NCBI GenBank assembly: GCA_965234725.1
Contig: CBDDUX010000044.1
Span: 1 to 58,341, forward strand
Length of the DNA: 58,341 nt
Direction: 5' to 3'
Source of the DNA: Thermoplasmatota archaeon
Lineage (GTDB): Archaea > Thermoplasmatota > Penumbrarchaeia > Penumbrarchaeales > Penumbrarchaeaceae
Shown here: one piece after another, positions 1,010 through 21,807 of the stretch
How positions within the stretch are numbered: the first letter of the stretch is position 1
How the letters are laid out: every line of letters begins with the position of its first letter
The notes under the pieces: generated by a model
The model's database searches: none
Told to the model about the DNA's origin: nothing
Seen by the model: the letters and a program-made list of their open reading frames with translations, nothing else
Position numbers and translations under genes: made by a program

Positions 1010-1168
1010 GATGGTGATTAATATCGAAGTTTTTTATCTCTTTCGGGTTCATGAATATCCTTGGATATGGAGCGAAATATTATAGTCTATCTGTCAAGTA
1101 CATCATGTTTCAATCCCTAGATTTAATAGTGACACTCACTAAGGTTAGAAGGGAGATCCATTAAAACA

Positions 1169-1927
1169 TCAAACTGTTGCATTGATTTCCAGCAACTTCA
1201 GTTTATAAACCCATCCATCAATGGTTTCCATATGGAAGATTTTCCTTGGATCGTTCTTATGGAGAAAATACGTCTGAGAATCGATTATGTCCACTTCGGG
1301 CTCATGTTCCATCGGATTTATTGGGATTCTAATAACAAGAGCGTAATGAGTTCTCTCGATGTTGTTGAGTTTATTATTCATGAACTCGTTCTGTTTCCTT
1401 AACTCTCGGTTCTCAGTTTCTAGGTTGAATATTCTGTTTTGATGCTTATGGTCCATATGCTTTATCTTCTCATTTTTTTTCCTTAATTTCTCGACTAGTT
1501 CAGCATCATCTTTTAAGATGACCTTACATTTTGTTTCAGGTATATTCTCTGTATTTTCCATTCTCTTCCTGAGATTGTTCACTTCCTCCTTCCATCTTTC
1601 CAACCCTTTACATTTCTTATTAAGGTCCATTATTAGTCTCTTTTTCTCCTTTTCAAGCTTTTCCATCTTTAAGAAAAGATCTGTCATCTCACCTCTAATA
1701 TTCACTACCTCAGATTCAAGTGTTTCATTCTTCTCTTCAATTTCCAAGGATTTCAAATAACTTGAATAAAGTTCCTTCAATATCTCATCATCATCACTAT
1801 CTGGGAATTCCTTCCTTATCATATGCCATAGTTCTTGGTCAGTTACAGCTCTTCTGATAATCAATCTGATTGAGGGAATGATCAAGGATGACATACTATC
1901 AGACAGTCCATCAATCCATTTTACCAA
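1169..1927 (-). CDS. Hypothetical coiled-coil protein
   Basis: 252-aa ORF with a long E/K-rich heptad region; start uncertain (TTG). Confidence 0.6.
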   Translation of the reverse strand: MVKWIDGLSDSMSSLIIPSIRLIIRRAVTDQELWHMIRKEFPDSDDDEILKELYSSYLKSLEIEEKNETLESEVVNIRGEMTDLFLKMEKLEKEKKRLIMDLNKKCKGLERWKEEVNNLRKRMENTENIPETKCKVILKDDAELVEKLRKKNEKIKHMDHKHQNRIFNLETENRELRKQNEFMNNKLNNIERTHYALVIRIPINPMEHEPEVDIIDSQTYFLHKNDPRKIFHMETIDGWVYKLKLLEINATV

Positions 1928-2150
1928 ATCAATATATGGTTATTGGTTTCATGAAACAATGTAAGAGCGATTTATTGGATACCATGACCTAATGGAACAT
2001 CAATGGTATGAGAGATTAGAGATGCTATGGCTGGTCTGGAAGAAATGACAGAAAATATTTCATTCTCATTATACAAATATAATGGTATTTGTATAGAATT
2101 TATAATTCGAGATTACTCAATGAACTTGGTGACTTATAACAGCAAATTCC

Positions 2151-2363
2151 TTATTCAACTATCGGAAAGTATCTGGCCCAGAATCTCTCATGCAGGTAGT
2201 AGAGGATGGTCTGAATTGTTTGAAAGATAATCGTTATCAGGATCGATCGTGAGAAATCTCCGGTCAACAGCAGAGTAACAGACAATAATGAGATAATACA
2301 GATGATCCGGTATGATATCGATTTCAGTATACCGCGTTTCTTTGTCTCTAGTTTTCCCGACAA
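2151..2363 (-). CDS. DUF2061-like small membrane protein
   Basis: ETKKRGILKSISYRI...TILYYLHERFW matches the DUF2061 pattern; TTG at 2363 is preceded by a GGGTGA RBS (ORF track starts at 2420). Confidence 0.75.
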   Translation of the reverse strand: MSGKLETKKRGILKSISYRIICIISLLSVTLLLTGDFSRSILITIIFQTIQTILYYLHERFWARYFPIVE

Positions 2364-2418
2364 CCTGTTCACCCAACCAATATCATTATTCATGGAATTA
2401 ATCTTATGCTCTATTATC

Positions 2419-2485
2419 AAAAAAAATTAAAAAAAAGACCCTTGAATCGAAGTAAAACGATCTTCGGATTCATATCCAAGGGTCT
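2419..2485 (-). terminator. Probable terminator of the 1390-aa surface protein gene
   Basis: Inverted repeat AGACCCTTG (2436-2444) / CAAGGGTCT (2477-2485) with inner AATCGAAG/CTTCGGATT stem, followed on the minus strand by T-tracts (A-runs 2419-2436). Confidence 0.5.
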
Positions 2486-2538
2486 ATCATGGTCCAGACT
2501 ATTAGATTGTCATCCCATATCGGCTTCATATTCGGTCT

Positions 2539-5500: not shown

Positions 5501-6672
5501 AAACCATCCGCTTTCGAGATCTGAAGTGCGTTCTCACAATCATGGTCCAGGATGTAATCCCTGTCTATTGCCGGTAATGAAGTGTAGTTCTGTTCGAAAA
5601 AGAGGGTGAGAGTGTCACCGCCTGAGGATTTGTTGTCGTAGATTACGACTCCAAAATAGATGTAAGTATCATCTGGATTCTCAACGATATAAACTTCAGC
5701 ATTCATTTTTGATCCGTTGAAATTGGTTAGAACCATATCCCTCTGATATGAATCAGCCCAGGAGAAGTCAGATGTGATATCTCCATCAACGGTTGGATCA
5801 CCGCCAATTGCATATGTGGCGTGTAGAGTAAGGTCGGATCTCTTCACACCCAACCGTATGTCACCCCACGTTTTGGTTCCATTTGCCGTGTAGCTGTTGG
5901 GATCCTTATTGGTCATGGACCAGTAATAATCAGTGTAAGACACGCTCTGACCCTGGAGTCTTGCATGTATCATAATCCCAAGTTCTTCGGAGGGATTTAT
6001 GTTTAGATCCGAACTCGATGATGAATCGGCTTTCTTGTTCAACGGTACCTTGAACTCATATGTGAGCTGAGTTGATACGATATCCCCGTAAACATACGCG
6101 CCAACATCCGTTGAAGAATCACCGTCTGTGATCCAGGCCGTTCCGTTCCAGCAGAGGTCAGTTAAAGTGGGTGTAACCGAGGATTTCTTGCACCTGACAG
6201 CATTCTCATTCGGAGCAGAGGTCGTTCCGGTGAGTCTGTCATCGTGGTCACCGTCATAGGTGGATGCTGCACCATCGCCCTCATCTAAGAATAGGGTTAC
6301 CCAGTTGTTATTATTACCCGAATTCTCATATCTATAAGTCATACCCACGTACAGGTACTCAGCATCGTTCATGAAAAGTATGGTTGCATCGATTGCCCTG
6401 GAACCGTTCCCATTCTCCATCCTAATAGTACGTACATAGGCACTGGCCCATTCGGCATTGCCTCCGCCGGTTGCAGTGTTGAATCTTCCATCCAATACCG
6501 GTCGGTTATCATCATCAATATAATACGAATATAGCTGCTCGCTTTCACCGCTATCTTCGGCCACGTGGGCTTCGGAGATCTCTGATGTACCAACCAAAAG
6601 GCCGAGCAATCCACTGATCAGAAATAGATATCCGATCATTAGGCTTCCTGCAATTTTCCTTTTATTTTCCAT
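2539..6672 (-). CDS. Large cell-surface protein: two DOMON/CBM9-like domains, Ig-like domains, thrombospondin type-3 (Ca-binding) repeats, C-terminal TM anchor
   Basis: Signal peptide; duplicated PxxDG...W...YxYxG...YEF domain; many DxDGDGxxN/DxFP repeats; TM WLALPITLTLLTILILATIFIA. Start 6672 chosen for its GGTGA RBS (ORF track 6711). Confidence 0.85.
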   Translation of the reverse strand: MENKRKIAGSLMIGYLFLISGLLGLLVGTSEISEAHVAEDSGESEQLYSYYIDDDNRPVLDGRFNTATGGGNAEWASAYVRTIRMENGNGSRAIDATILFMNDAEYLYVGMTYRYENSGNNNNWVTLFLDEGDGAASTYDGDHDDRLTGTTSAPNENAVRCKKSSVTPTLTDLCWNGTAWITDGDSSTDVGAYVYGDIVSTQLTYEFKVPLNKKADSSSSSDLNINPSEELGIMIHARLQGQSVSYTDYYWSMTNKDPNSYTANGTKTWGDIRLGVKRSDLTLHATYAIGGDPTVDGDITSDFSWADSYQRDMVLTNFNGSKMNAEVYIVENPDDTYIYFGVVIYDNKSSGGDTLTLFFEQNYTSLPAIDRDYILDHDCENALQISKADGFQDQQFTASGGVSDWDADTDTDNEDQLGKVRYYLKPNRYEFEFRLNYSAAKDGANDEDLYLAKNALIGFHLQYHDDDAVGVADYFWEYTANNNATLIDKNNNVFLDMGFAYLQLGGPAIKLIAPQDQGTATGSGYTFQIMAVDENANGVKWCGFQVEGQTTWTSLIKTNNTNIWSCSWDTTTLNNGNYDVIIVAKDDEGVVVRRYIEVTVYNKGTGIPPTMIKFDLDPTEQKPISGTSVDFIASSSKADGVKFYVDSTLMGDMSLSSSGDYVFNLNSELISDGVHSFRAVAYNTYGESALSKSYTVDNWALAGNPIDDPGSAISSEYTFTVRPNPSEDCEYTEIFIDGSLYGIDFTLTSDTHQFPINTTFLTDGNHVVKAISYDPDGKFVISFMSFETDNWHPDVSIISPIDGSKVSGEIEVTVSGSDLDIVYFYVDDELVMTSTDEGPWVYDLNSDNYRDGIHLIKVVGSGCDGNTVLDTTSLIFNNDMTGPSVSILSPQSGQDVFDDVIVLVMVTDESDLASVDLILDGETTIPMSGRLGSSYYEYTLSIEALGLGDHTILAIAEDISENSGQSPEISFTNALQDVDGDDVADDFDDDIDGDGIPNFKDLFPFDEFESEDSDGDGIGNNADNDDDNDGWSDTEETTYGTDSFDACIYPVDSDEDHIPDSVDTDDDNDGFIDSKDAFPTDPDEWSDLDEDGIGDNSDLDIDGDGVMNIWDVFPLLSSEYMDTDEDGIGDNTDPDIDGDGFVNTEDEFPLNPLEWIDLDGDGIGDNSDLDIDGDDVFNIQDLFPTDPSEWDDLDEDGIGDNSDPDRDGDGIQNSNDSYPDDPYEWSDIDKDGMGDNKDLDIDGDGVLNVNDAFPFDASESLDTDNDGIGNNADTDDDNDGVKDGDDEAPLNPYIGPKDYKWLALPITLTLLTILILATIFIAKKYSLLEPKTSEEEEPRTSHPHMRRIDREVKKEEKDKEGSARELGMFRDKEQSQK

Positions 6673-6741
6673 TCCATCACCTTTCTTATGATTTGTTTTT
6701 TCAACTACCATTTCAATAAAAAGTTGAATATAAGCCCATTA

Positions 6742-6798
6742 TGGTGCAAAAATCTTCGATTCGAGCAATCGTCAAACAGTTCGAAGAGGATTGCACCA
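6742..6798. promoter_or_regulatory. Imperfect inverted repeat in a divergent promoter region (candidate operator)
   Basis: TGGTGCAA-aaa-TCTTCGA (6742-6759), 21-nt spacer, TCGAAGA-gga-TTGCACCA (6781-6798), between divergent genes. Confidence 0.5.
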
Positions 6799-6856
6799 CA
6801 TTTACTACATATACTCAGGTTAAATGGCCTTTAGAGAAAGTCGATGGTGATCCTTC

Positions 6857-7993
6857 ATGTATGATCTCAGAAAGATAGGCCCGATCCTTGTTGCCGTTGG
6901 TTTGATTGTCTTGATCCTGCCTTCTCACGTAATAGCGGGAGAACCTCAAGGATCCATGGAAAAGAAAGTGGAAAAGACCGAGGACGGAGGATACCACATC
7001 CAGATTGGTGAGATGAACGTTTACTATTATGGTTACAGGATGCAGTTCAACTCAGCTGATTCAGAGGACTTTGATGACTTCCATCTAAACATGAAGACTC
7101 TGAAAATCCAGGGTGATCTGGATGATACTGGGACTGGAGAATATTACTGCAATCTCAATCAAGTCATATGGCAATATCGGACAGGTGAAGGATATGGACT
7201 CCTCGAAGGGTATGCCGATCTGGACCTCGAAATGACAAGTTCTCATGGTCAAAATATTGATCAATCTACTTCAACTGGGGATTCGGAACAAAACCAGGAT
7301 CCGGTGAATTCAGGGGGTCAAGGTAATTCACAACCAGATGAAACGGGAGGACAATCTGATGGTGGAGGAACGGGATCGGATGATGAAATATTGATTGATT
7401 GGGCAAGATTGATGATCCGCTTCCAGGGATTGGATCACGAGGGAGGACTCAAGTTCGATATTAGAATACAGCTTAAGGAAGAAGCAAGAGGCGATACGAA
7501 GATCACTCTGGAACAGGACATGAAAGGAGAGGAGAAGACCTACGAACATAGACATGTCACCCATTCAGGAGAGACTACCATTTCCGGTAATAAACCGGGT
7601 GAATACCAGCTTCGATCGGATGACAAGATGGTAGCCAAGTATTCATGGTTGTATCCATACAACACAACGAATGAAAACGGTACACAGATCGAGGAGCGAT
7701 CGATGAATGAGGATATCCTTGAAGGAGAAAACATTGCATTCGAGTACCAGGTCAAGGCCGGAGAACAAATGATTGTTCATGATCCAAACATATTTGTGAA
7801 CAGTGAAAATATAATTTCTATCCTCGGTGATGCAGAAGATCTGGTTAAGGAGCACTGGCAGTCGATAGCGGCAGGCATATTCGTAGGTTTGGTTCTGATG
7901 ATGATAGTCTCCGCCACTTTCATCAAGCTATCCGGGAACGGTTCGAATGATGATGAGAAATTCGACTTGAAGAAGAACAGATATTACAAGTGA
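6857..7993 (+). CDS. Secreted/membrane-anchored hypothetical protein
   Basis: GGTGA RBS, N-terminal signal peptide, Gly/Ser/Asp linker, HDP motif before a C-terminal TM helix. Confidence 0.8.
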   Translation: MYDLRKIGPILVAVGLIVLILPSHVIAGEPQGSMEKKVEKTEDGGYHIQIGEMNVYYYGYRMQFNSADSEDFDDFHLNMKTLKIQGDLDDTGTGEYYCNLNQVIWQYRTGEGYGLLEGYADLDLEMTSSHGQNIDQSTSTGDSEQNQDPVNSGGQGNSQPDETGGQSDGGGTGSDDEILIDWARLMIRFQGLDHEGGLKFDIRIQLKEEARGDTKITLEQDMKGEEKTYEHRHVTHSGETTISGNKPGEYQLRSDDKMVAKYSWLYPYNTTNENGTQIEERSMNEDILEGENIAFEYQVKAGEQMIVHDPNIFVNSENIISILGDAEDLVKEHWQSIAAGIFVGLVLMMIVSATFIKLSGNGSNDDEKFDLKKNRYYK

Positions 7994-8060
7994 TCGTCAT
8001 CCGAACCTTTAGAGAAAATGTGTCTTGCAGTTGAGTATAGATCTCAGAGTCGGAAATACC

Positions 8061-8597
8061 TTATTGGGTCCACGATTCGATCAATGTATCGACAATCCTA
8101 TCGACGAATGAGGACCGGAACGCAAGGATAAGTTCGAATACCCTGTCTGGCTCCTTGATCGAGTACCTCTGCATCCTGGTATCTCCGGTAGATCTGATCA
8201 AATCATCCTTTGAAAATCGTTTCAGATGATAGGATATCGTGGCCGATGATACGGTGAAATGTCTTGTAAAATCCCTGTTCTCGGATCCGGGATTTTCTAA
8301 CAGGAAAAGCAGTATTCCTCTCGGTAATTCCTTTCGTAGATAGGAGAGGATCAACTTATCCTTCATGGAAATAGGTTGATCCCGGATGAAGTATCTCGTA
8401 TAATGTTCCTCCTTCGCTTCTGTTATGATCTCCTTCTTTGTCATTTCTCTAAGATGATACTGGAGGGTTCCGGATGCAAATCCAGTCTCTCTCTCCAGGC
8501 TTCGAAAATGTACTCCCGGATTGCCTCTGATTATTCGATAGATCTTCCTTCGCGATCTTATGTCATCGATCTCAAAGGGTGTATCATCTTCCTTCAA
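8061..8597 (-). CDS. Double winged-helix transcriptional regulator (COG3398/ArsR-like)
   Basis: RRKIYRIIRGNPGVHFRSLERETGFASGTLQYHL and a second wHTH ENPG...VSSATISYHLKRF; TTG 8597 overlaps the upstream TGA and follows GGAGG (ORF track 8693). Confidence 0.85.
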   Translation of the reverse strand: MKEDDTPFEIDDIRSRRKIYRIIRGNPGVHFRSLERETGFASGTLQYHLREMTKKEIITEAKEEHYTRYFIRDQPISMKDKLILSYLRKELPRGILLFLLENPGSENRDFTRHFTVSSATISYHLKRFSKDDLIRSTGDTRMQRYSIKEPDRVFELILAFRSSFVDRIVDTLIESWTQ

Positions 8598-8908
8598 TCC
8601 ACTCCTCCCTCCCGATGAGATGTGTTCAAGATCAGTTTGATTATCGTGATCAAAATAAAAACTGTAACAGGTATCGGAAATATCCATCCCCAAACGGGGA
8701 TCTCTCCTTCAAGGGATCCAAATACAAAATATAGCAAAGGCAAGATTGAGATAAATGCAAGGGAAAAGGATATCGATCCAAGAAAGAATGCTCTTTTTTC
8801 TTTTCTCCTGAAATAACCGATGAAATACAGTATCGACAGGAAGAAACCCAAAATTCCTCCTGCAGCCAGGGTCATGTCTAGAATTAACATTATTAAGCCA
8901 TGATTCAA
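8594..8908 (-). CDS. Small multi-TM membrane protein translationally coupled to the wHTH regulator
   Basis: 104 aa with three hydrophobic segments; its stop overlaps the regulator start (TTGA). Confidence 0.7.
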   Translation of the reverse strand: MNHGLIMLILDMTLAAGGILGFFLSILYFIGYFRRKEKRAFFLGSISFSLAFISILPLLYFVFGSLEGEIPVWGWIFPIPVTVFILITIIKLILNTSHREGGVD

Positions 8909-9070
8909 TGGTTAAAACTGCATATAAGTGTTCTTGTTGGATCAATATTTGGAATATTTTTTAGATATCGAGTTCTTCTATATGCGAGGAGTATTCGATT
9001 GGGATAATCTCCACTTCAAATAAATAATGATGATGCAAATGGTCAAGAAAGCAATAAAAAAGTTAGTTGA

Positions 9071-9303
9071 ATTATAGGGGTGAAGCCCCTTCCGACGCAT
9101 TGAAAGGGGCTTCTTTTTCTCTTGGTCCGGACCGTTTTCATCCGTTATCCGCTCGGAAATCTTTTCTCGAAAATGGGTTTTTCGGGGCATTTTCCGGATA
9201 ATTTAGCTTTTCTAGTTAAACCCCGATCTACCAAATATGAGGGTAGTTTTACGACACCATGACTATAGTTATATGACACCAAAGGGCTAGAACACGACAG
9301 GAT
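9071..9303. repeat. Non-coding repeat element, copy 1
   Basis: GGTGAAGCCCCTT...AAGGGGCTTC hairpin, GAAATCTTTTCTCGAAAA core, AAACCCCGATCTACC, phased ACGAC motifs; near-identical to 19297-19527. Confidence 0.92.
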
Positions 9304-9680
9304 TGTGAATACTGGATAGAATTTTGAAGGCGGGATGTTTTAAACATTTTTAGTTAACTAATATCCATTTTTGAGGATTTTCTCCATAATTATTTTTTCA
9401 AATATAGAATTATAATCTACACGGTATGATAATATTGAGAAGAATCCCATTACATTATTTCTGTTATTCCCATTGAAATATACTTTGATGTATCTTTGAA
9501 AAATTTCTTTTTATGAATTTTACACCATACGCCCATCGAATTTAGCAGATTGAAACTTTTACTATAAATTTCCCTAAATCGAATGAAAATGCTAAATAGT
9601 TCATCTATCCATATCATTTATTCGAGTACTTGATTTGATATCTGGTAAGATACACAAATCAAGATTCAGGGGAGATATAG

Positions 9681-12600
9681 GTGAAAAAGGGTGGATCAAG
9701 AATATTACCCATTTTTTGTGTTGGATTATTCCTGACAGGTATTTTCATCCCGATTGTGGAAGGATGGGCGAATAATCAGAACCTTACCATTCCTACCCGA
9801 ATGGATATCATACCGGGCCCTTATAGGAACTTGAAAGTTCTTGTCAACGACCTTTTAGCGGTTACAGAAGATTGGACGGATTCGGACAACGACACACTGC
9901 CGGATTCCGTAGAGAGGATAATAGGGACCGATCCTGACAACGATGACAGTGATTACGACACTCTGAATGACTCCTACGAGGTAGAAATGAACATGGATCC
10001 GCTCAGTCCGGATTCAAACAAGGACGGCATATCGGATCCCAGAGAGATAACCAATGTCTCATTGGATATCGACGGGGACGGCATTCCCAATCCATGGGAC
10101 CGGGACAATGACGGAGACGGACTTGAGGACAGTACCGATATGTCCCCGTTTATAAAGACGGATCTCCACAGCAACTATCACATAGGAGTGAATTCAACCG
10201 GGAAACCCCTATATCTCACTTTTCAGGTAGTACCGGAAAATACAGACAATCTCAAACTCATGCTGCAGACACTTGACTGGCCCCTTGACGACAAAGGGAG
10301 TATGAGGGACATGGACGATTCCAAGGACGATGTCTTTGCATTCCCTTATCTGGAAATGAAATGTGATCTGCTGCCTGAGCAGAAGGATGTCCTCGAATAC
10401 GGGATCACTATAAAAGAAGATAGAGCCATCGTTCCGCTATTCTCCGAGTGGGAATATGGCAAGGTTGTAGGCCTGAGAGGAAAGATGTTTTTCCCTGGGA
10501 CCCAGGCCATGATCGATATGGATGTAGCCTTGAAATGGGACATAAGCGGATTGACAGATAGTCCCGCTAAAACTCTTCGTGGATCCAATGAAAAGTATCT
10601 CACCTCTGAAGACACAGGCATGGTATATGCTAATTATACAAGTATTACAGAATCCCAACGTTTTACATGGAAGGAAAGCGAAGAAATAATCACTCTGATA
10701 TCCGAGAAAGGCAGATTCCTCGGTATTGATGATGACAGGTATCTGAAGGCAAAATGGACTGAACCATGTGAGAACTGTTCATTTACCGTGGAACCAGCTG
10801 AAGGAGGATCATATCTTTCAGATCAATTCGGGAGGTATCTGTGTCTTCAGGATGATGGATCATATAGAGCAGAAGAGAAACGTGATGACAGTACCTTGCT
10901 GAACATCTCTAACAGCGGATATCGAAGCCAAAAGCTCAAGTTAATTACATATGACGAGGATTTCACCATAGCCAGCCTGACTGCATCGGAAAACGGTGGA
11001 ACTGAGATCGGAGTCTTCAACTGTAACAACCCCTCTGAAATGATCACGGCCAACATGGTTTTTTCCTACGACTACCTGCATAATTACTCCAACTCCATGG
11101 AAGACCTGGATTCCATACTTCTCGATCGAGGACTCGAACTGGATAATATTTTGGAAGAATATCCTCACCAGGACCTAGCCGTTATGAACGGAATGGAATG
11201 GATGATCGAAGAGGCTTTAGAATCCCTTCCCGAGGATGTAATCCTGCCGGTTACGATTCTTATGGAAGACAAGTCCGCCATGGTAGACCTATCAAGGATG
11301 AACACCACCGAGGGAAGTACATTTCTTGTTGACATGAGTAATAAACCCTTGATTACCACCCGGACGCTTAAATCTGCGTGGTATCACACACCTTCCACAG
11401 AACCTCTTGATGCCGATGATATTGTGGATGAGCTCGTTCCCTTACTTGAGGATCTGGAAGAGGACGAAGCTTCCATGGTGATATCTCTAGCTTTGAACTG
11501 GAACTTCGGGGACCTCAACATAGTTCATGACGGGTGGGGCATTGTCGAGAAATCGACGGCAATCGGAGCAATCCAGAATGCAGTGGACTGGATCCTCTGG
11601 GCCAATTCGGGTCGAATGATGCAATGGGGGGTAGCGAAGGATATAGTATTCCCCATCTTCAAATTCCTGTATTTCGTGGAGAAGATCTATCCAACATTAA
11701 ATATCGGCGGAACTGGTCTTCAGAAGTGGAAATGGGCATTTTCCGCCTATAAGGATGTGAAGGTGCTTAAAGACGTGTCTGGCGTTATTGAGGTTTTTGG
11801 GTGGTTGGTGGACATTATTGGTTATTCCGTTGACATGGGGATGATTGCTTTCACATTCATAGCTATGTGTGCCTCTTACGGTTGGGATCCCTTTGGAGTT
11901 AGTATAGCCGGCACTTATGCGATGATATCCGCTGCATACGTCAGCGTGATGTTCTTGGGCGGTGCATCAATGAGCCTCCTAGCAACGGTGTTAGGTGCAT
12001 TGACGGTCCCTGTGGTAGGATGGATAATCGCGGGCGTTGCTGCAGTGATCTCTCTTGCAATAGCTGCGGTGGAGTTTTTTGTCAAATTAGGAACCGGAAA
12101 AACAGCCTCGGAATGGATAATAGGATGGATAGTTGATGCTTTCTCCGGGGTAAGGTCTCTCACAAGCCTTGATATGGAATTTTTGGATTCAGGAATAGAG
12201 ATCTTTGACAGGACAGGTAACGGTCTTGATGCTGGAGACCGAATAGAGTACCTGAACGTAATGAATTCAACTGTTACAAGGATGCGGAAAGGGACCTCGA
12301 AACAGGTTAATGAATCATATCTGATCCCGGAGACCATGGTATATGTACCATGGTTGGATACGATGCAATGGGAAAACCTACAGGTTGACTACGGATACGA
12401 AAAGAGGGAACTCTCCAGAACGGAGACCGAGGATAAGAAGGAAATCATGTATGAAAATACCGGATGGGTGGAACCGGGAATCGCAATGCCGAACATGCCG
12501 GTTGTGAGTCAGATGAATATGCAATACAAAACCTTCTACCAGGAATACAATCATTTGATGCTTTACTATAATACTGAAAATTCTTCTGGAATCCAACGGG

Positions 12601-15600
12601 GAGAGAAAACTGTCAGATACTATGATGTCCTGCCCGAGAACATTGACGATTTTGCCACATGGAAATATCTGAAGTATGCAGATTCGGACGGCGATGGGAT
12701 GAATGATACGGATGAAGAAAGAACCGATCCGATGAAATGGGACACTGACGGAGATCTGCTTGCTGACAGCTATGAGATCAATCTGGGATACGACCCTGCA
12801 GATCCTGATTCCGACAGGGACGGACTTTGGGATAAATGGGAACTGATCAATAATCTGGATCCGGCAAAATATGACACTGACGGGGACGGATTATCCGACT
12901 ACCAAGAATACGAGGGGTGGATCATAAACTTCACCTACTGTGGAGAATATTTCGAGTGGCACATAAGATCGGATCCGTCGAATCCAGACACGGACGGAGA
13001 CGGACTTAACGATACGGTGGAATTCCTGTGTCTTCTGAATCCCATGTCCTCCGATACCGATGGGGACGGTATGCAGGATATGATCACCAACTACTCAACC
13101 ACCAAGATGGAAAAGACGGACACGTTGGGTGACGATGAGCCGTTCTGTTTCCATGACTGCAGCGATCTGACAACCGATTCTATAGGCAATATTATTATGA
13201 TTAGCCAGCAAAATGATTCGGTGATCAAAATGACACCGAAGGGGGATCTCCTTTGGGAATTCAAAGATCCCTCCTTTAATTATCTCAGATCGGTAGTCAT
13301 TGGTCCCGAGGACAGAATATATGTGGGAAGATTCAGGGAGTATGAAGATCTTCAATTATTGATATTCATCCTTAATCCAAACGGAACCCTGAATAAGACA
13401 ATATACAATCTCGATCAGGGATTTGGATGTCAGTACGGATCGCAATCACTTGTTGTTGACGACGCTGGTAATATTTTTTCCTTGGGTTGGGGTTGGGGAG
13501 ATCCTCCTGTATCTTATTTGGTTAAATACTCCCCCAATGGAACCACACTGAAGAAGAAGATATTCCAGGAAGAATTGGACCAAGCAAATCATTTTGCTAT
13601 GAATAAAAGAGGTTATTATTTTATTCTCGACAGTGGCAATAAAAGGGTCGCTATTTACGATGATAAGTTGAATTTATCCTATTATTGGGGAATCTCCCAG
13701 TTCGGATCAGCCAGTGATATATGGATCGATGAGGGTGACAACATCTTTATCTGCGACGGGGACCAGAGCTACGATCTGATTGCCAAGTTCGACAGATACC
13801 GCCGAACACTTGCAGTGTGGAGTACACCCCTTATTGAGACAAGCATATACGTCGATCCGAATGGCGATATTCTCGTCGGTGGAGTGGTGGAAACCGGAAC
13901 CACAAGAGGCAGGATAATTAGGTTCCATCAGAACGTAACCATACACCAGGTCCAGGAGAACTTATCATTCATTGACACCGACGGAGATGGAATTACTGAT
14001 CAGATGGAAGAACAGGGATGGAATATAACAGTCAAGTTTGAAACGGGTATCCTTAAATCAAAAGTATATTCCAACATTAAAATGGTGGATTCCGATATGG
14101 ACGGTCTCTCCGATTGGGATGAATTCAATATGTCCTCAAATCCGAATTCAACGGACACAGATGGTGACGGGCTTCCAGATTTGAAGGAGATAGATCAATA
14201 CACAAACCTCTCTTCATGGGACACGGATGGAGATGGTCTGTCAGATTTAGCTGAGTTATTTTTCATAAGCGATCCATTATCAAATGATACCGATGGAGAT
14301 GGATTGATTGATCTCAAGGAATTGCAATTCGGATCCGATCCGAATTTGAAGGATTCGGATTTTGATGGATTAAATGATTTAGAGGAATGGAAATTAGGTT
14401 GGAAACCATTGGATCCTGATCCGGATAGCGATTTTATGTTCGACGGGACTGAATACTTTTTAGAATGTGATCCGTTCGATCCCGATCTTGATCAAGACGG
14501 TATGGAGGATGGATGTGAAAGGTTATACGGAACAGATCCAAAGAATGGTGATTGTGATGATGATGATATCATGGACGGAACTGAGATTGATCTCCACCTG
14601 AATCCATTATCAAATGATACAGATGAAGATGGCTTGACAGATTCCAGAGAAATGGAGATAGGTTACAATCCTCTCTCCAGGGATTCGGATGGAGATGGTT
14701 TGATTGACAAGGATGATTTGGATTATACCTTTGATCTTGAAGGGAATATCGTTGTAGTCGCGGATTCCGAATACAAAGAATTCATCACTTTATTATCTGG
14801 GATCTCTTCAGTTGAAAGTGTTGATGCAGATACTTTCCTTGACAAACATACTGATGATGATAATATAATTATTATTGGAAAACCAAATAAAGAGGGAAAT
14901 GAGGCAGAACAGATAATATATGATCTACTTGAAGATAGGCAGGACCTTTTGAATGACATGTTAAATTATGATGAATGCAGATGTATTGTCAGATACGGTA
15001 TCTGGAAACCGGACCAGACAGTGATACTGCTTTCAAATCCATACCCTTACGATCATATTAGAATTCTTGGTATATTAAAAAGTATGAGAATGTCAGTCTT
15101 GCCAAATTCGGTAAAGGCCGATTATATCAGCCCGAGAAGTTTTTTCCTCCTTGACCAGATGGATGCAGTTTCCAGGACCGATACGGAGGTTTCGTGTATC
15201 TTTAATGATAATTTTACTTTTAATGTGGAAGTGACGAGATCTCAAGAGCCCCAAAATACTGAGCAAATGTCGCAAACAAATGGCTTGAATTCAGGTGAGG
15301 TCCCGATGGAAAAATATCTTGAAATCCATATACAAAACAGTAATAGTGATTTTGTTCCTGAAGAGTCAATAATCAGGTCAGAATTGTTGATTTATTATAC
15401 TGAAAGCGATCTCGATATGAACGGAGATGGAGATTCGAACGATCCTGAAGACCTTGATGAGAGTACACTTTCTCTCTATTATTATCAGAATGGCACCTGG
15501 TGTCGAATCCCGGATGGCAAAGGAGATGGGTTCGTCAGTTTAAATAATACAGATCAAAATGTTAACGGAAGAGACTACGCAGGACTGATCAGTGCATCTA

Positions 15601-16049
15601 TGGATCATCTTTCAATTTTCGGAATTGCTGGAAAAGTAAGAGGTAGATTCATTCTCCACATCGGTCCGATTGAAGATAGACAGGGATCGATCATTTCAAG
15701 TGCTGAAGTAATCATTAATTTGGGGAATTTAACAGATAATAATTCAACAGATGAATTCGGGATGACGACCTTTTTATTGCCAATTTCTTACCTGAATTCC
15801 AGCATTCACATAGATATACTTAAAGAAGGATATTTTGATATATCCTATGATACAAGAATCGATGAAAATGGCAATTTATTAGAATCACCTCCTGCCCTTA
15901 GAAAATCATCTGAAGAAGAAGAAGGCAAGGAATTATACTGGTTCCTCATCCTTATCATTTTCATAGTATCATTGACTTTAATATTTTCAGCCTTAATATT
16001 TAAAAGGATGAAAAGACTAGATAACTTATCATCCGATTTCGAGGAATGA
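9681..16049 (+). CDS. 2122-aa multidomain surface protein: TSP3/binary-toxin-type Ca-binding repeats, fascin-like beta-trefoil, hydrophobic helical region, NHL-type propeller, C-terminal TM anchor
   Basis: Signal peptide; DTDGDGLxDxxE repeats; LRGSNEKYL/LISEKGRFL/LSDQFGRYL trefoil-like repeats; long hydrophobic helices at about aa 700-820; DSGNKRV NHL-like motif; TM plus SDFEE end. Confidence 0.85.
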   Translation: MKKGGSRILPIFCVGLFLTGIFIPIVEGWANNQNLTIPTRMDIIPGPYRNLKVLVNDLLAVTEDWTDSDNDTLPDSVERIIGTDPDNDDSDYDTLNDSYEVEMNMDPLSPDSNKDGISDPREITNVSLDIDGDGIPNPWDRDNDGDGLEDSTDMSPFIKTDLHSNYHIGVNSTGKPLYLTFQVVPENTDNLKLMLQTLDWPLDDKGSMRDMDDSKDDVFAFPYLEMKCDLLPEQKDVLEYGITIKEDRAIVPLFSEWEYGKVVGLRGKMFFPGTQAMIDMDVALKWDISGLTDSPAKTLRGSNEKYLTSEDTGMVYANYTSITESQRFTWKESEEIITLISEKGRFLGIDDDRYLKAKWTEPCENCSFTVEPAEGGSYLSDQFGRYLCLQDDGSYRAEEKRDDSTLLNISNSGYRSQKLKLITYDEDFTIASLTASENGGTEIGVFNCNNPSEMITANMVFSYDYLHNYSNSMEDLDSILLDRGLELDNILEEYPHQDLAVMNGMEWMIEEALESLPEDVILPVTILMEDKSAMVDLSRMNTTEGSTFLVDMSNKPLITTRTLKSAWYHTPSTEPLDADDIVDELVPLLEDLEEDEASMVISLALNWNFGDLNIVHDGWGIVEKSTAIGAIQNAVDWILWANSGRMMQWGVAKDIVFPIFKFLYFVEKIYPTLNIGGTGLQKWKWAFSAYKDVKVLKDVSGVIEVFGWLVDIIGYSVDMGMIAFTFIAMCASYGWDPFGVSIAGTYAMISAAYVSVMFLGGASMSLLATVLGALTVPVVGWIIAGVAAVISLAIAAVEFFVKLGTGKTASEWIIGWIVDAFSGVRSLTSLDMEFLDSGIEIFDRTGNGLDAGDRIEYLNVMNSTVTRMRKGTSKQVNESYLIPETMVYVPWLDTMQWENLQVDYGYEKRELSRTETEDKKEIMYENTGWVEPGIAMPNMPVVSQMNMQYKTFYQEYNHLMLYYNTENSSGIQRGEKTVRYYDVLPENIDDFATWKYLKYADSDGDGMNDTDEERTDPMKWDTDGDLLADSYEINLGYDPADPDSDRDGLWDKWELINNLDPAKYDTDGDGLSDYQEYEGWIINFTYCGEYFEWHIRSDPSNPDTDGDGLNDTVEFLCLLNPMSSDTDGDGMQDMITNYSTTKMEKTDTLGDDEPFCFHDCSDLTTDSIGNIIMISQQNDSVIKMTPKGDLLWEFKDPSFNYLRSVVIGPEDRIYVGRFREYEDLQLLIFILNPNGTLNKTIYNLDQGFGCQYGSQSLVVDDAGNIFSLGWGWGDPPVSYLVKYSPNGTTLKKKIFQEELDQANHFAMNKRGYYFILDSGNKRVAIYDDKLNLSYYWGISQFGSASDIWIDEGDNIFICDGDQSYDLIAKFDRYRRTLAVWSTPLIETSIYVDPNGDILVGGVVETGTTRGRIIRFHQNVTIHQVQENLSFIDTDGDGITDQMEEQGWNITVKFETGILKSKVYSNIKMVDSDMDGLSDWDEFNMSSNPNSTDTDGDGLPDLKEIDQYTNLSSWDTDGDGLSDLAELFFISDPLSNDTDGDGLIDLKELQFGSDPNLKDSDFDGLNDLEEWKLGWKPLDPDPDSDFMFDGTEYFLECDPFDPDLDQDGMEDGCERLYGTDPKNGDCDDDDIMDGTEIDLHLNPLSNDTDEDGLTDSREMEIGYNPLSRDSDGDGLIDKDDLDYTFDLEGNIVVVADSEYKEFITLLSGISSVESVDADTFLDKHTDDDNIIIIGKPNKEGNEAEQIIYDLLEDRQDLLNDMLNYDECRCIVRYGIWKPDQTVILLSNPYPYDHIRILGILKSMRMSVLPNSVKADYISPRSFFLLDQMDAVSRTDTEVSCIFNDNFTFNVEVTRSQEPQNTEQMSQTNGLNSGEVPMEKYLEIHIQNSNSDFVPEESIIRSELLIYYTESDLDMNGDGDSNDPEDLDESTLSLYYYQNGTWCRIPDGKGDGFVSLNNTDQNVNGRDYAGLISASMDHLSIFGIAGKVRGRFILHIGPIEDRQGSIISSAEVIINLGNLTDNNSTDEFGMTTFLLPISYLNSSIHIDILKEGYFDISYDTRIDENGNLLESPPALRKSSEEEEGKELYWFLILIIFIVSLTLIFSALIFKRMKRLDNLSSDFEE

Positions 16050-16213
16050 TCGAAAATACCTAATAATAAGGTTTTTTTAAAAATAAACCGTAGTTCCACT
16101 ATTGGAATCGATATTGTTACCATACAAATCAACTAAGGTGAAACGAGAGAAAATTATCCAAACCACAAAAGTCCAGTCATATTATTTTGATATGTGAATT
16201 TTATTTCATTTGG

Positions 16214-16423
16214 ATTATTGGTGAAGCCCCTCCCGACGCGTTTGAAAGGGGCTTCATTTTTCATCTCGGTCCGAATCTCTTCTTTCCGTCATTCGCTTAG
16301 AAATCTTTTCTCGAAAACGGGTTTATCAGGCTTTTTTCTTGTTTTATGGCTATTTTCATTAAACCCCATCCCCGATACTATACACTATTTTTCCGACACT
16401 ATGAAGATTGAACACGACTCTAT
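16214..16423. repeat. Non-coding repeat element, copy 2 (more diverged)
   Basis: GGTGAAGCCCCTCCCGACGCGTTTGAAAGGGGCTTC, GAAATCTTTTCTCGAAAA, TTAAACCCC and TTGAACACGACTCTAT shared with copies 1 and/or 3. Confidence 0.88.
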
Positions 16424-16570
16424 CTTGGGGTAATAGCCTGTAATTCAAAGTCAATTCTATTCGGCTTGCGTATCAAAAACAATATAAACCGATCCTTAAC
16501 ATGATTTCCCTTATAGGAAAGCTGCCCGGGGCCCCATTTCAGGGCTCCTAAATCGACAGAAGGGATAGAC

Positions 16571-19180
16571 ATGAAAAGAATGAATGGAATTTTTAATTGT
16601 CTTGTGATAACTGTGCTGCTCGTATCATTCCTGTTCTTTCAGGTTATTGATAGCTCGTCTGGTTCCAGATACAAGATCGACACGAAAATTACCCGTGCGG
16701 ATTCGATCTTCATCGGAGGGGAAGTCAATGATTTTTTTGGATATGCTGTATCTTGCGCTGGGGATGTGAACGGTGACGGTATCGATGACATTCTGATCGG
16801 AGCTTATGGAAATAACACAGGGGGGAATGATGCAGGAGAGACCTATCTTTTCTTCGGCAACCGTTGCGAGGGATTAAACAATATTTCTCTCTCGGAAGCA
16901 GATGCTTCTTTCATTGGAGAGAGCCCCGGTGATTGGTCAGGATTTTCGGTTTCCAGCGGTGGTGATATAAATGGTGACGGATACGATGATATCCTTATAG
17001 GAGCCCAACACAACAGCGAGGTAGGGAGCGAAACAGGTCAGACATATCTGATCTTTGGAAAGGAAGATGGTTGGGAATTGAACATGAACCTTTCCCATTC
17101 TGACGCTTCTTTTCTGGGGGAGTTTCCAGAGGATCGTTCGGGTTCCTCTGTATCTAGCGCTGGAGATATCAACAGAGATGGCTTCAATGACATATTGATA
17201 GGATCCCCTGGAAACGATCAGGGAGGGATTATGGCAGGAAAGACTTATCTCATATTCGGCAAGGAGTCCGGTTGGAGCATGGATACATACCTTGATTCTG
17301 CTGATGCATCATTTTTCGGAAGTAGGAATTACGATAGCTCTGGAATCTCGATATCCATAGAAGGCGACGTCAATGGAGATGGATATCATGATATTCTGAT
17401 ATTTGGCTGGGGAAGTGGAAATGGGACGACAAACCTCATTTTTGGAAGAACATCCGGTCTGGGAAAGGATTTCAATCTATCTAGCGCTGATGCCTCCTTC
17501 GTAGGAGAAACTGGTCTTGACCGTTCGGGTATCTCAATCTCCAGCGGGGGTGATGTCAATGGTGATGGTTTCGATGACATCCTTATAGGTTCTGATCTAA
17601 ATAGTGAAGGAGGGACAGGTGCTGGGCAAAGTTATCTGATAATGGGGCGAGACCAGGGATGGTCAAAAGGAGTCTCCCTTTCCAACTCAGATGCTTCGTT
17701 CATTGGTGAATCAATTCTCGATTATTCAGGATCAAAAGTATCGATAATCGGAGATGTCAACGGGGACGGATTCGATGATATACTGATAAATAGTCCCAAT
17801 AACGGTGAAGGAGGGACAGGTGCTGGGCAAGCCTATTTGATATTCGGGAAGAGGTCTGGATGGAGCATGGACAACTTACTTTCGGATGCAGACGTATCTT
17901 TTCAAGGTGAAAATAATTATGATCATCTCAGCTTTTCATTATGTGGATCCGGAGATGTGAACGGAGATGGTTTCGATGATATTCTTATTGGTGCAAGTTA
18001 TGGTGGTCCATCTCATGATAAATCGGGAAGGGCATATCTTATCCACATCAAAACCAGACCGTCACCACCGGAGAAAGTATGGACGGAACTATCTGAGAAT
18101 GGTTCCTATCTCAAAATCTCTTGGAACGCTTCTTTCTATATAGACAATATTTCCGGATACAGGGTGTATCGCTCAGAAAATGGTATTGATTATCCCCTAA
18201 TCGCTCGTACTAACAGCGATACTTTGTACTACATCGACAAAGATGTTGTGATAGGCAGATACTATCATTACAAAGTAACAGCAATCGGCGTTCCAAATAT
18301 GGAATCCTTCAACTCTAAAGGTGTCTCCATTATGAACGATTTGGATACTGATAGTGACTGGATCGGCAATTCCGTTGATGATGACGATGATAATGATGGC
18401 TATCCAGATGTTATCGATCCGTTCCCTCTGAACCCACTTGAATGGTTGGATACCGACAATGATGGCCTTGGGAACCAGCTCGATAATGATGACGATAATG
18501 ATGGTCTTCCCGATGCGATAGATCCTGACCCTCTCAGTTCGATAATCACCATGATGAAGTATATGGGTGCAATGAACATGACCATTGAACAGATCAATGT
18601 GGAGATCTCCCAGATCAGGATCGAACTTGAAAACTTCTTGAATTCGGTATATGGATCACTTCAGACCATCAGAGACAACCTTGACAGTTACGGTGTGAAC
18701 ATTTCCTTGGATATGGATGATTTGATGCTATTTGTGGAGGAAATGGAACCGGGGATCCTTGAAAACCTCTCATCCAAACTAAATGACCTATCAGTGAAGG
18801 TTGGTGAGAACAATACTCAGATTAGGAACGATCTTCTCGACCTGAAGGGAAGTGTGGATGAGTTCAATGAGAAGATGATGAACAGCATCTCATTTCTATC
18901 GGCGAAAGTTGCAACCAGTGAAGATGCAGAAACCATCAAAGATAACATCGACAGAGTTGAAACAGAACTTGAGAAATTAGATGGGTTAGATGAAGAGATT
19001 TCAGACCTTGACCGAGGCCAAGAGGACATTGAAGGCCGTATAGCAGGTTTAAGGATCCATATCTGGATCTTGATAATATTTCTGATCATACTTGCAGTCG
19101 TGATAGTTGGAATAGTTCTCAAGGTGGAGTTCATGAAACAGGAGGATTCATGGAACATCGAAGATGATGATGAATGGTGA
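16571..19180 (+). CDS. FG-GAP (integrin-alpha-like beta-propeller) surface protein with FN3 domain, TSP3 repeats, coiled-coil stalk and TM anchor
   Basis: Seven GD(V/I)N(G/R)DGxxDILI repeats; FN3 motifs (LKISW, GYRVYRS, YHYKVTA); DTDNDG repeats; heptad stalk; C-terminal TM. Confidence 0.9.
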   Translation: MKRMNGIFNCLVITVLLVSFLFFQVIDSSSGSRYKIDTKITRADSIFIGGEVNDFFGYAVSCAGDVNGDGIDDILIGAYGNNTGGNDAGETYLFFGNRCEGLNNISLSEADASFIGESPGDWSGFSVSSGGDINGDGYDDILIGAQHNSEVGSETGQTYLIFGKEDGWELNMNLSHSDASFLGEFPEDRSGSSVSSAGDINRDGFNDILIGSPGNDQGGIMAGKTYLIFGKESGWSMDTYLDSADASFFGSRNYDSSGISISIEGDVNGDGYHDILIFGWGSGNGTTNLIFGRTSGLGKDFNLSSADASFVGETGLDRSGISISSGGDVNGDGFDDILIGSDLNSEGGTGAGQSYLIMGRDQGWSKGVSLSNSDASFIGESILDYSGSKVSIIGDVNGDGFDDILINSPNNGEGGTGAGQAYLIFGKRSGWSMDNLLSDADVSFQGENNYDHLSFSLCGSGDVNGDGFDDILIGASYGGPSHDKSGRAYLIHIKTRPSPPEKVWTELSENGSYLKISWNASFYIDNISGYRVYRSENGIDYPLIARTNSDTLYYIDKDVVIGRYYHYKVTAIGVPNMESFNSKGVSIMNDLDTDSDWIGNSVDDDDDNDGYPDVIDPFPLNPLEWLDTDNDGLGNQLDNDDDNDGLPDAIDPDPLSSIITMMKYMGAMNMTIEQINVEISQIRIELENFLNSVYGSLQTIRDNLDSYGVNISLDMDDLMLFVEEMEPGILENLSSKLNDLSVKVGENNTQIRNDLLDLKGSVDEFNEKMMNSISFLSAKVATSEDAETIKDNIDRVETELEKLDGLDEEISDLDRGQEDIEGRIAGLRIHIWILIIFLIILAVVIVGIVLKVEFMKQEDSWNIEDDDEW

Positions 19181-19296
19181 TCGAGCAAAATACAGCAGCA
19201 TGGTGATATGGATGTTGCGAATAATGGCTGGACATCATTTTATCGAATCGGTCATTACATTGACAGTGTAACAAATAGTAAGGTCATCTAATGGAA

Positions 19297-19527
19297 ATTA
19301 TGGGTGAAGCCCCTTCCGACGCATTTGAAAGGGGCTTCTTTTTCTTCTTGGTCCAGCCCGTTTCCATCCGTTATCCGCTCGGAAATCTTTTCTCGAAAAG
19401 GGGTTTTTCGGGGCATTTTACAGATCATTTGACTTAAATAGATAAACCCCGATCTACCAAATTTGGGGTAGTTATACGACACCATGATGTTGGAACACGA
19501 CTCTATAAGGTTTGAACACGATAGGAT
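19297..19527. repeat. Non-coding repeat element, copy 3 (integrase-proximal)
   Basis: 19302-19419 differs from 9078-9193 by 4 substitutions and 2 single-base indels; shared 35-nt exact block CATCCGTTATCCGCTCGGAAATCTTTTCTCGAAAA. Confidence 0.92.
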
Positions 19528-19665
19528 AAATTCGTCGGTTAAACATCAAGATCGATGGTTATGAAAGAATGTATCATTGATGGATCAAATATAGAGGATA
19601 TGACAAGAAAATAACTATAGTTATTTTTCGGCTTTCAGATAGACCATTACATTATACCTCAATAA

Positions 19666-20199
19666 TCACTCATCCGATGGTAATAGATGCTTGAGTTCCG
19701 GATACTTCGATCTGTCCGGAGGAGGCTCTGATTCTCTTTTCTTGATCTCCTCCTTGGACGGCATTCCGTTGATGTAATCGGTAATGTCTTTGGTGATCTT
19801 CTTTGACCTCAACTTGAAGGCGTCGGAATGATATCTGAGGTGGAAGGTCGGGATCCCATCCTTGTCCACTCTTACCACCGATGCTTTCTCGGAGAATACT
19901 ATTCCCTTGTCCTTGTCCCACCGCTTGAATACCTTCTTCGGATCGTAGATCCTGACCTTGGTGAGTTGATCTCCGACCTCCATGAAACAGTAACCCAATG
20001 TGGGATCCTTGGGATCTATCGAGATGAGCATCAGGGTACCAGTGACCTCTTCGTGGTCCTTCAGTTCATGTACCACGATCTCGTCCTGAATATTCTCGTA
20101 GTTCTCGAAGAAGTCTGTATACTTCTTCTCAAGAAGTTTCCGTGATGAGATGTATATGTGGAGATCACCAACTCTGTCAAGCTTGTTGACATCTATCAT
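19666..20199 (-). CDS. Hypothetical protein, third gene of the integrase module
   Basis: 177-aa ORF starting 39 nt after the integrase stop, same strand, similar GC-rich codon usage. Confidence 0.75.
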   Translation of the reverse strand: MIDVNKLDRVGDLHIYISSRKLLEKKYTDFFENYENIQDEIVVHELKDHEEVTGTLMLISIDPKDPTLGYCFMEVGDQLTKVRIYDPKKVFKRWDKDKGIVFSEKASVVRVDKDGIPTFHLRYHSDAFKLRSKKITKDITDYINGMPSKEEIKKRESEPPPDRSKYPELKHLLPSDE

Positions 20200-20238
20200 G
20201 GATCGGGGATGGACTCGGAGTTACTTATCTTTTGGTCC

Positions 20239-21171
20239 CTAAAGATTGAACCGTGGGATATGCTGCAGATAGGAACGTTTCAGCTCCTCGGGTGTTATGT
20301 GATTATAGATGTCAATTGTCTCGGTCCTTGAGTCGCCTCTGAGTTCCTTGACATAATCTCGTGGCATCCCGGAGTTCAGCAGCTCCGTCGTGAAGAAGTG
20401 TCGGAAGCAGTGAGCCGTGTACCTTTTCTCAAGGTCCGATGAGTCAGGATCGTGCAGGCCTGCCTCTTCCGCATACCTCTTGAGTCTATTGTTCAGGATC
20501 ACATGGGACATCCTGTGCCCAACATCGGTGACAAACAGGGATATTTCTCCCTCATTAGCCGTCTCGTGCCTGATGCTCAGCCATCTTTCAAGGAGCCTCC
20601 TCGTTTCGAGATCGAAGTATACGTCCATGTTCTTGCGTTTCCCTGTTGCCTTAACGTTAATGGTCATCTCTTCCAGGGAAACATCCACGAGATCTATTGA
20701 AAGAAGCTCCTGTGCCCTCAGACCGGTCTTGGCAAGCAAGGTATACATCGCCTGGTCCTGAGGATCGAGGATCGATCCTATGAATATCCTCATCTTCGGA
20801 AGGTCTATTATCTGCCTCTTCTGCCCCCGGGCTCCCGTCCTGTAATTGTTGGAGATATATCTTCGCCTGAACTTTGGGATCGGAGATTTGACGACATAAT
20901 CCTCGTCCTCCAGATATTCATAGAATGAAGCCAGGTTGTTGATGTGCTTCCTGATGCTCTCAGAGGAAATCTCTCCGTTCCTTCCCTTTCTTTTCTTGAG
21001 ATCCTTCAGAAACTTCTTCAGGTCATGCTGATCGATATCCACGTATGACTTATCCTCTATGCTTTTCCTGAAGACATTCAAGGTATACCTGCATCCTTTG
21101 GTCGTCCATTTGCTCCATCCGCGAAGCTCCACATCGTCGAAGAAATCCTCCTCCAGAGAAATGTTATCCAA
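20239..21171 (-). CDS. Tyrosine recombinase/integrase (XerC/D-like, archaeal ELRGD subtype)
   Basis: TGLRAQE (Arg), KRK (Lys), HCFRH (HxxR), ELRGD in place of LGH, DIYNH (Tyr); N-terminal SAM-like domain. Confidence 0.95.
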   Translation of the reverse strand: MDNISLEEDFFDDVELRGWSKWTTKGCRYTLNVFRKSIEDKSYVDIDQHDLKKFLKDLKKRKGRNGEISSESIRKHINNLASFYEYLEDEDYVVKSPIPKFRRRYISNNYRTGARGQKRQIIDLPKMRIFIGSILDPQDQAMYTLLAKTGLRAQELLSIDLVDVSLEEMTINVKATGKRKNMDVYFDLETRRLLERWLSIRHETANEGEISLFVTDVGHRMSHVILNNRLKRYAEEAGLHDPDSSDLEKRYTAHCFRHFFTTELLNSGMPRDYVKELRGDSRTETIDIYNHITPEELKRSYLQHIPRFNL

Positions 21172-21685
21172 CCCACTTCCACCCCCTTTTGGAATATTTG
21201 ATCAGACCATAACCCTTCAGTGCTTCCAGCTGGTTCCTGATACCCTTGACCGCTTCGGTATCTGTAGGATCCACCCCGAGCTTGGATATGATATTGTGGT
21301 TTGGGATCGGATATTTTGCCTCCTTGAGTAACCCCGTAAGGTCCTTGTTGAACATCCTGTAACCGTCACCGGTCTCCCCGAAGGAGATATGCTGCGCTCT
21401 CTTCATGTCATGCTCCAGGATCTCGATATACCTTTCATGTCTTCTATTCTGGATCTTCAGAACCCGGTTTTCTTCCTCAAGAGCACTGATCTCTTTTGAC
21501 AGGGTCTCCTTTGCTTCAAGCTGTTTCATCAGATTTCCCATGACCCTTGCTTCGACCGTCTCGATGATGAACTTGGAAAGAGAGGTGTTTTTGCTCTTCG
21601 CATACTTCTTCCATCTCTCCTTCTGACCGAACGAATGAAGGTATACCTCGACCTTCCTTTTTTTAATTGTTTCGGTCTTTCCCAT
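21164..21685 (-). CDS. Ribbon-helix-helix/coiled-coil DNA-binding protein coupled to the integrase
   Basis: VEVYL...KERWKKYAKSKNTSLSKFIIETVE RHH-like pattern followed by a coiled coil; 8-nt overlap with the integrase start. Confidence 0.75.
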   Translation of the reverse strand: MGKTETIKKRKVEVYLHSFGQKERWKKYAKSKNTSLSKFIIETVEARVMGNLMKQLEAKETLSKEISALEEENRVLKIQNRRHERYIEILEHDMKRAQHISFGETGDGYRMFNKDLTGLLKEAKYPIPNHNIISKLGVDPTDTEAVKGIRNQLEALKGYGLIKYSKRGWKWVG

Positions 21686-21735
21686 GAACTCCGATAAACT
21701 TGCTGGCTAATAAAAATTTGCATGTAAAAAAATAG

Positions 21736-21807
21736 AGCCACTGGAGGGAGTTGAACCCTCGACCTACTCCTTACCAAGGAGTCGCTATACCTCTAAGCCA
21801 CAGTGGC
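21736..21807 (-). tRNA. tRNA-Thr (GGT)
   Basis: GCCACTG/CAGTGGC acceptor stem, anticodon arm ACTCC-TTGGTAA-GGAGT, T-arm GAGGG-TTCAACT-CCCTC; no encoded CCA; T-tract downstream. Confidence 0.97.

Follow-up and report, generated by a model that had tools for sequence, protein, structure and literature searches.

In Dehalococcoides, copies of about 20 bp from the 3' end of an RNA gene (ssrA) delimit tandem islands. Insertion is in the T-loop, a conserved motif lies just upstream of each repeat, and many islands lack an integration module (16 of 31 carry one); the enzyme is a serine integrase (available text of PMC3146451). Streptococcal CIMEs, which occur with ICEs and IMEs, are integrase-less elements that keep attL and attR; they accumulate at the end of a tRNA gene, giving internal sites that are chimeric, and can move as composites; in the accessible part of the source they are decayed elements at the helper's own target (PMC5704250). 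Prochlorococcus tycheposons (bioRxiv 2020.12.28.424599) and archaeal tandem elements (PMC8371274, PMC6563490) use tRNA-specific tyrosine integrases, and newcomers push older elements outwards, leaving partial tRNAs behind; as described in the available portions of these sources, they carry their own integrase. Integrons, including archaeal ones (bioRxiv 2022.02.06.479319, available text), offer a likeness in outcome: co-oriented sites, cassettes of one or two genes reordered between genomes, and arrays without an enzyme.

The locus described here is a layered form of tandem tRNA-targeted genomic islands, not a new integron. It shares with tandem tRNA islands and CIMEs units bounded by direct copies of the target's 3' end, and integrase-less units with retained ends alongside an enzyme-bearing relative (in genome G009). 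Unlike integrons, it has no IntI and no attC, its sites derive from a tRNA end, and its cargo lies in both orientations behind long leaders. The Dehalococcoides islands differ in several respects: here the target is an archaeal tRNA-Met, units measure 0.8-10 kb and mostly contain one or two genes, the arms fall into several families, some sites lack the tail, and the stack lies inside a second island. The CIMEs are decayed, whereas the units here look streamlined and recently mobile, and their carrier targets a different tRNA; in contrast to tycheposons and archaeal tandem elements, a single integrase-bearing unit was found among all units examined. What is new is that the stack is nested in a tRNA-Thr island, that this island has an att box of its own and that some sites are tail-less, together with the test of arm assortment and a candidate enzyme. 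A search of the full-text literature, with subscription journals mostly outside its coverage, found no description of this system.

The window, that is, the whole stretch analysed, comprises 58,341 nucleotides of contig C44 from a Thermoplasmatota archaeon (its genome is G000; other G numbers denote the genomes compared). A tRNA-Thr(ggt) gene (21735-21807, minus strand) forms attL of an outer island. Reading leftwards, ORFs of 173, 310 and 177 aa follow on the minus strand, then ORFs of 869 and 2122 aa on the plus strand, with three direct, intergenic repeats of about 210-230 bp between and beyond them (~9080-9305, ~16220-16425 and ~19303-19530). This gene order, and the coordinates given in the preliminary description, match the ORF and tRNA calls. 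The intervals between repeats measure 7143 and 3083 bp, and each holds one large gene, as had been noted; nhmmer, which scores the three repeats at E values of 1e-59 to 8e-78, finds no copy in the window to the right of tRNA-Thr, in agreement with the earlier account. Repeats 1 and 3 are 86% identical, while repeat 2 shares 74% with either. GC content is 42-43% left of repeat 3 versus 47% right of tRNA-Thr. The left part of the island (1..9217) contains at least five genes, including an Ig/TSP3 surface protein and an HTH regulator, and ends in the left arm of repeat 1; no further core was detected in it, and the far boundary lies beyond the contig. No Rfam family matches the repeats, and a promoter/terminator scan gave a result at chance level.

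In each repeat, a 7-bp core (AAACCCC) joins a left arm to a right arm. Genome-wide matches are full, left-only or right-only, and all break at the core; iterated searching showed that each half match is a full joint carrying another arm family. Left arms fall into the window's own family LA, into LB and LB', and into rarer ones, and open with a stable hairpin and a T-run (z -3.1 to -3.9). Right arms either run on as GTCCCCGACAC, the tRNA tail, or are of the Ra type. They repeat the last six bases of the tRNA at +12, +33, +54 and +76, about two helical turns apart, a phasing that resembles protein-binding arrays and may reflect one; Ra arms retain the later motifs and have lost the tRNA tail. 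Many right arms diverge immediately past the last base of the tRNA. In repeat 1 the LA-type left arm (9082..9217, plus strand) consists of a terminator-like hairpin (9082-9113) with a T-run and a conserved body, and the core (9218-9224) is followed by a tail-less Ra arm that reaches 9305, with CGACAC-like motifs at +34, +56 and +77. Repeat 2 (16222..16425, plus strand) joins an LA-type left arm, a core at 16361-16367 and a tRNA-Met tail with two mismatches, with motifs at +12, +33 and +54. Repeat 3 (19304..19530, plus strand; core 19444-19450) is again an LA-Ra joint and the final site ahead of the integration module. The sites in the window face this module, opposite to the polarity of tRNA-Thr.

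The origin of the core lies in another tRNA gene, on contig C75 (G000:C75:14887-15005), whose 3' end is identical to core plus tail over 18 nt. In this gene an intron follows the CAT anticodon; ARAGORN wrongly calls the gene Ser but its orthologues Met. It is probably the elongator rather than the initiator tRNA-Met, and the core corresponds to a T-loop/T-stem portion of it. Three more sites lie downstream of it in G000, and arrays behind tRNA-Met were found in G000, G001, G003, G004, G005, G007, G009 and G023. A contig of G004 opens with the end of tRNA-Met and has, within 18 kb, ten co-oriented sites, eight of them pattern-matched and two degenerate. The tail of the host tRNA carries a one-base difference in G008 and G017, which the copy downstream shares. 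The preliminary description had held that the repeats are not tRNA-derived att duplications; from their letters they are such derivatives, of tRNA-Met rather than of the adjacent tRNA-Thr, and a duplicated Thr tail was looked for in the repeats and no match was found.

A strict pattern gave 28 matches in G000 (the tRNA itself, two armless matches that were dropped, and 25 array sites on 9 contigs) and two in a reversed-genome control; a further site, on C102, was found through its left arm, making 26 Met-type sites on 10 contigs. A looser core pattern, whose 164 matches in G000 are mostly due to chance, was used only for locating the tRNA. The tRNA-Met tail (0-3 mismatches) is present at 18 of the 25 pattern-matched sites and the core alone at seven; in the window, one repeat of three has the tail. 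Sites on any one contig are all co-oriented and are confined to island-like contigs, and the distance from one core to the next varies between 69 and 9766 bp (31 intervals).

Across the core, the two arms of a site assort independently. Among 43 non-tRNA sites from G000 and its relatives (near-contig-end sites and one armless match left out), Mantel tests gave a correlation of 0.59 between the halves of the left arm and 0.28 between those of the right arm (both p 0.001), against 0.01 between left and right arms (p 0.37). Related genomes are not independent, yet the result stands within G000 alone (22 sites; 0.71 left, 0.49 right, -0.01 across the core).

Cassettes are shared precisely between genomes. 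G000 and G004 have an AbiE cassette in common at 99.3% identity (1875 bp), against a background identity of 84-91%; the match starts at core +0, and the left arms differ. Of a surface-protein cassette, five copies (two in G000, and one each in G004, G023 and G001) begin no more than 4 bp from the core, one of them directly at tRNA-Met. Many other long cross-genome matches stop away from any detected core and are mostly paralogous genes or older shared blocks. Arm assortment and core-precise sharing bear out the earlier proposal that the repeat is a recombination site, and support the movement of cargo as repeat-bounded cassettes, which sequence comparison makes likely. Cargoes include toxin-antitoxin genes, AbiE and surface proteins, and Ra sites head at least seven different cargoes in G000. 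Within the window, cassette 1 (9218-16360) carries the gene for a predicted 2122-aa surface protein with TSP3 repeats and a fascin-like domain (9681..16049, plus strand), with paralogues on C72 (43%) and C40 (40%). Cassette 2 (16361-19443) carries a predicted 869-aa FG-GAP surface protein (16571..19180, plus strand); a paralogous unit on C80, 72% identical, begins 97 bp past the core and extends into the hairpin. Since only such diverged paralogues were found for both, their mobility would follow from that of the family. In assembled contigs of two sequencing runs, which cannot show rare circles, depth was flat and no repeat-repeat joint was seen.

The integration module next to tRNA-Thr belongs to a different family. 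The 310-aa tyrosine recombinase (20239..21171, minus strand) conserves R152, K178, H254, R257 and Y289, with D280 where XerD and XerA, its nearest structural relatives by sequence, have His; in the family (this gene and 34 related loci), Asp (LRGD) replaces the second catalytic His in at least 90% of members. Against the integron-integrase model TIGR02249 it scores only 50 bits (cut-off 265), consistent with the reported lack of an evident IntI insertion. The 173-aa gene (21164..21685, minus strand) precedes the integrase at 33 of the 35 loci of the family; the partner gene had been called RHH, and while the gene itself is a regular companion, its RHH-like identity is doubtful, the match to DUF6364 (E 0.0012) being below cut-off and the remaining matches being unnamed clusters. 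The 177-aa gene product (19666..20199, minus strand) has no known family and only five database sequences, and was seen only behind Thr-linked integrases; an OB-fold lead scored only 0.83 and was dropped, and the structural model (pLDDT 54) was too poor to search. In the second Thr module of G000, a reversed gene for 239 aa without a Pfam family stands between the integrase and the small gene (L097:700-1419; G000:C102:6022-6741).

At 32 of the 35 family loci a tRNA in the same orientation precedes the integrase by 560-890 bp; the tRNAs are of seven kinds (Thr, Leu, Ser, Glu, Gly, Arg and Lys). A palindromic TTTACnnGTAAA-type box (21717..21728, minus strand, in the window) stands behind the tRNA in 20 of those 32 loci, a count made in the same loci from which the motif was defined. 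Among 47 tRNA calls in G000 it occurs only behind the three Thr genes, and also ahead of three Thr tail fragments. The box is the putative att signature of the integrase family, which appears to have been retargeted among at least seven tRNA types while keeping it; alternatively, it could be an operator of the partner protein. All three tRNA-Thr genes of G000 precede a 173-aa gene, with the full module at two and the third cut by a contig end. Of 401 genomes in the phylum, 30 have homologs of the integrase (E<=1e-40); used as a query, it gave one locus in a metagenome scan and two in a genome scan, none extending an array. In G004 the tRNA-Thr(ggt) site is empty, and in G003 and G007 tRNA-Thr has no module, so that window positions 1-21734 probably represent an insertion at tRNA-Thr. 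The integrase of this outer island lies at attL; C25 has one box-plus-Thr-tail site, which is not assignable to the window's island. An origin of the window array as the far end of a tRNA-Met array was dropped, since G004 has a different neighbour behind tRNA-Thr; contig-end overlaps could not join C44 to other array contigs, and many ends share short repeats.

Taken together, these observations probably describe a Met-type cassette stack nested in a tRNA-Thr island, with two site-specific systems at work. The inner system would be an element family with the 3' end of elongator tRNA-Met, an intron-containing gene, as its integration target. Its unit would run from right arm through cargo to left arm, the attachment site of the circle would read left arm, core, right arm, and strands would be exchanged within AAACCCC(G). 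Repeated insertion would build a head-to-tail stack in which each repeat joins one unit's left arm to the next unit's right arm, and nearly all units, being without an integrase, would be moved in trans, most likely by a separate tyrosine recombinase of 370-390 aa like that of G009. The outer system would have put the island into tRNA-Thr by means of the 173-aa/310-aa module and its own box-flanked sites, with the stack as cargo. Two of the window's three sites lack the tRNA tail and would be confined to secondary sites, the one integron-like trait; a tail-less Ra unit inserted at tRNA-Met would damage that gene. Repeat anatomy, the tRNA-Met origin of the core, arm assortment, cassette-precise sharing and the empty Thr site in a relative are observed; from them we infer the circular intermediates, the acting enzyme and the stack's entry into the Thr island. 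The preliminary description had offered as its alternative the conserved ends of an element family integrated in tandem without integrase, and this was essentially right. No tyrosine integrase was found inside any G000 unit bounded by two sites.

The candidate mover is encoded in G009, where tRNA-Met is followed by a 4751-bp core-to-core unit with a different tyrosine integrase. The right arm of this unit has CGACAC-like motifs at +12, +33 and +54 (phased score above all 3000 random windows), and its end resembles an LB left arm, although the similarity is modest (score 37 versus 31 for the best of 300 shuffles). In G021 the tail of a 56%-identical integrase lies beside the same kind of right arm. 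The G009-type enzyme is most likely a better candidate for the Met-type sites than the window integrase. Of 37 genomes in the class, only one gave a match to it (E<=1e-25); none was found in G000, although cassettes have moved recently. The enzyme's rarity fits a transient helper, yet leaves recent movement in G000 without a resident enzyme. Seven such proteins are at 54-100% identity, that is, six close homologs besides that of G009, which come without genomic context. Viral contigs held no match to the hairpin pattern or to the G009 integrase. Another integrase family, of 270-290 aa (G003, G004, G007 and G009), was rejected as the enzyme, with no site found nearby and no close homolog found in G000. 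Serine resolvases are present in four of five genomes. One long contig (L086, G004:C9) ends with a 388-aa integrase that looks unrelated to archaeal ones and is possibly foreign or mis-binned.

The strongest rival to a separate mover is that the Thr-linked integrase also acts on Met-derived sites, at least on the tail-less Ra ones, in which case the island could capture cassettes by itself and repeat 3 would be its attI-like entry point. An LA-core site, a full left arm-core-right arm joint like the others, does lie directly behind the module in both assembled G000 modules (222 and 467 bp behind the 177-aa-type small gene), seven Ra sites occur in G000, where no G009-type enzyme was found, and the family has switched among seven tRNA types. 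Strict Ra sites were found only in G000 and G011 (2 of 24 genomes), and the genus of G011 also has the module. The joint in repeat 3 has a 5-bp inverted repeat around an 8-bp spacer; inverted repeats around a short spacer are typical of tyrosine recombinase cores. Against this, the family box is present in none of 23 Met-type repeats, and the arrays of G001, G003, G004 and G007 exist in genomes where no close homolog of the integrase was found (integrase-lacking relatives are 83-96% complete). The stretch that separates the site from the small gene shows no conservation between the two G000 islands, and small Thr islands in G008 and G013 have no Met-type site. The proposal that the repeat serves the neighbouring recombinase, made in the preliminary description, is therefore unlikely.

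A related and still tentative possibility, not the one we favour, is that a tRNA-targeting system has turned integron-like: the Thr island would be a landing pad that ferries stacks, and its own integrase may have taken over. Because tail-less Ra units cannot rebuild tRNA-Met, traffic would run through internal sites only. If true, this would be an archaeal platform, free of IntI and attC, that shuffles large surface-protein genes, and should tail-less sites prove able to recombine in the absence of the tRNA, tandem islands at tRNAs and integron-like arrays would be two ends of one evolutionary path. The resemblance to integrons does not extend to the sites themselves. As previously stated, no paired RYYYAAC/GTTRRRY boxes frame any repeat on either strand, and repeats 1 and 3 fold into several short hairpins, with no single long one.

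Under the preferred reading of a nested stack, the duplications are tyrosine-recombinase crossovers; that they are instead target-site duplications made at tRNA ends by a casposase or other transposase is improbable. Tandem casposon insertion with target duplication has been described (PMC6563490, available text), G000 has a second Cas1-family frame (408 aa, C59) beside tRNA-Leu, and the abrupt divergence of many right arms after the tRNA's last base would suit such a process. No casposase or polymerase genes and no terminal inverted repeats were found in the region, however, and no inverted repeats join cassette ends in the window. The conserved Ra arm starts inside the would-be duplication, which means that the unit takes along DNA to the right of the core; searches of the array-bearing G004 and G007 found no Cas1, and the sole enzyme-bearing unit found (G009) encodes a tyrosine recombinase. 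Equally improbable, and largely refuted, is that the repeats are dispersed terminator, regulatory or MITE-like elements shuffled by ordinary homologous recombination: the left arm's hairpin and T-run and the length and similarity of the arms (100-150 bp at 75-95% identity) could support this, but exchange is focused at the 7-bp core even between unrelated left-arm families, the core copies a tRNA end, and the copies, whose halves assort independently, are clustered and co-oriented on island-like contigs.

The nested stack shows an uncultured sediment archaeon renewing surface proteins and defence genes in precise packets of one or two genes, and its few parts (two integrases, two kinds of site and defined cassettes) lend themselves to testing.

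Several further observations touch on these islands. Partial copies of the 5' part of tRNA-Thr(ggt) lie upstream of the gene in several relatives (L161, L166, L168, L169). At four loci (L135 in G027, L189 in G003, L191 in G008 and L192 in G006), an inverted copy of the tRNA's own 3' end stands 20-60 bp past the tRNA, followed by short tail-bounded units. Groups of G000 contigs, the right end of C44 included, end in identical stretches of 50-55 bp, probably the ends of multi-copy insertion sequences. Two Met-type sites are closely preceded by a CRISPR-Cas operon (G000:C106:251-11777), presumably of type I-G, which includes a 554-aa gene containing Cas1 and may belong to the cassette cargo. Finally, a 299-bp non-coding stretch is 97% identical between G000:C25:1560-1858, beside the box-plus-Thr-tail site, and C40:107787-108085, beside an LB arm fragment.
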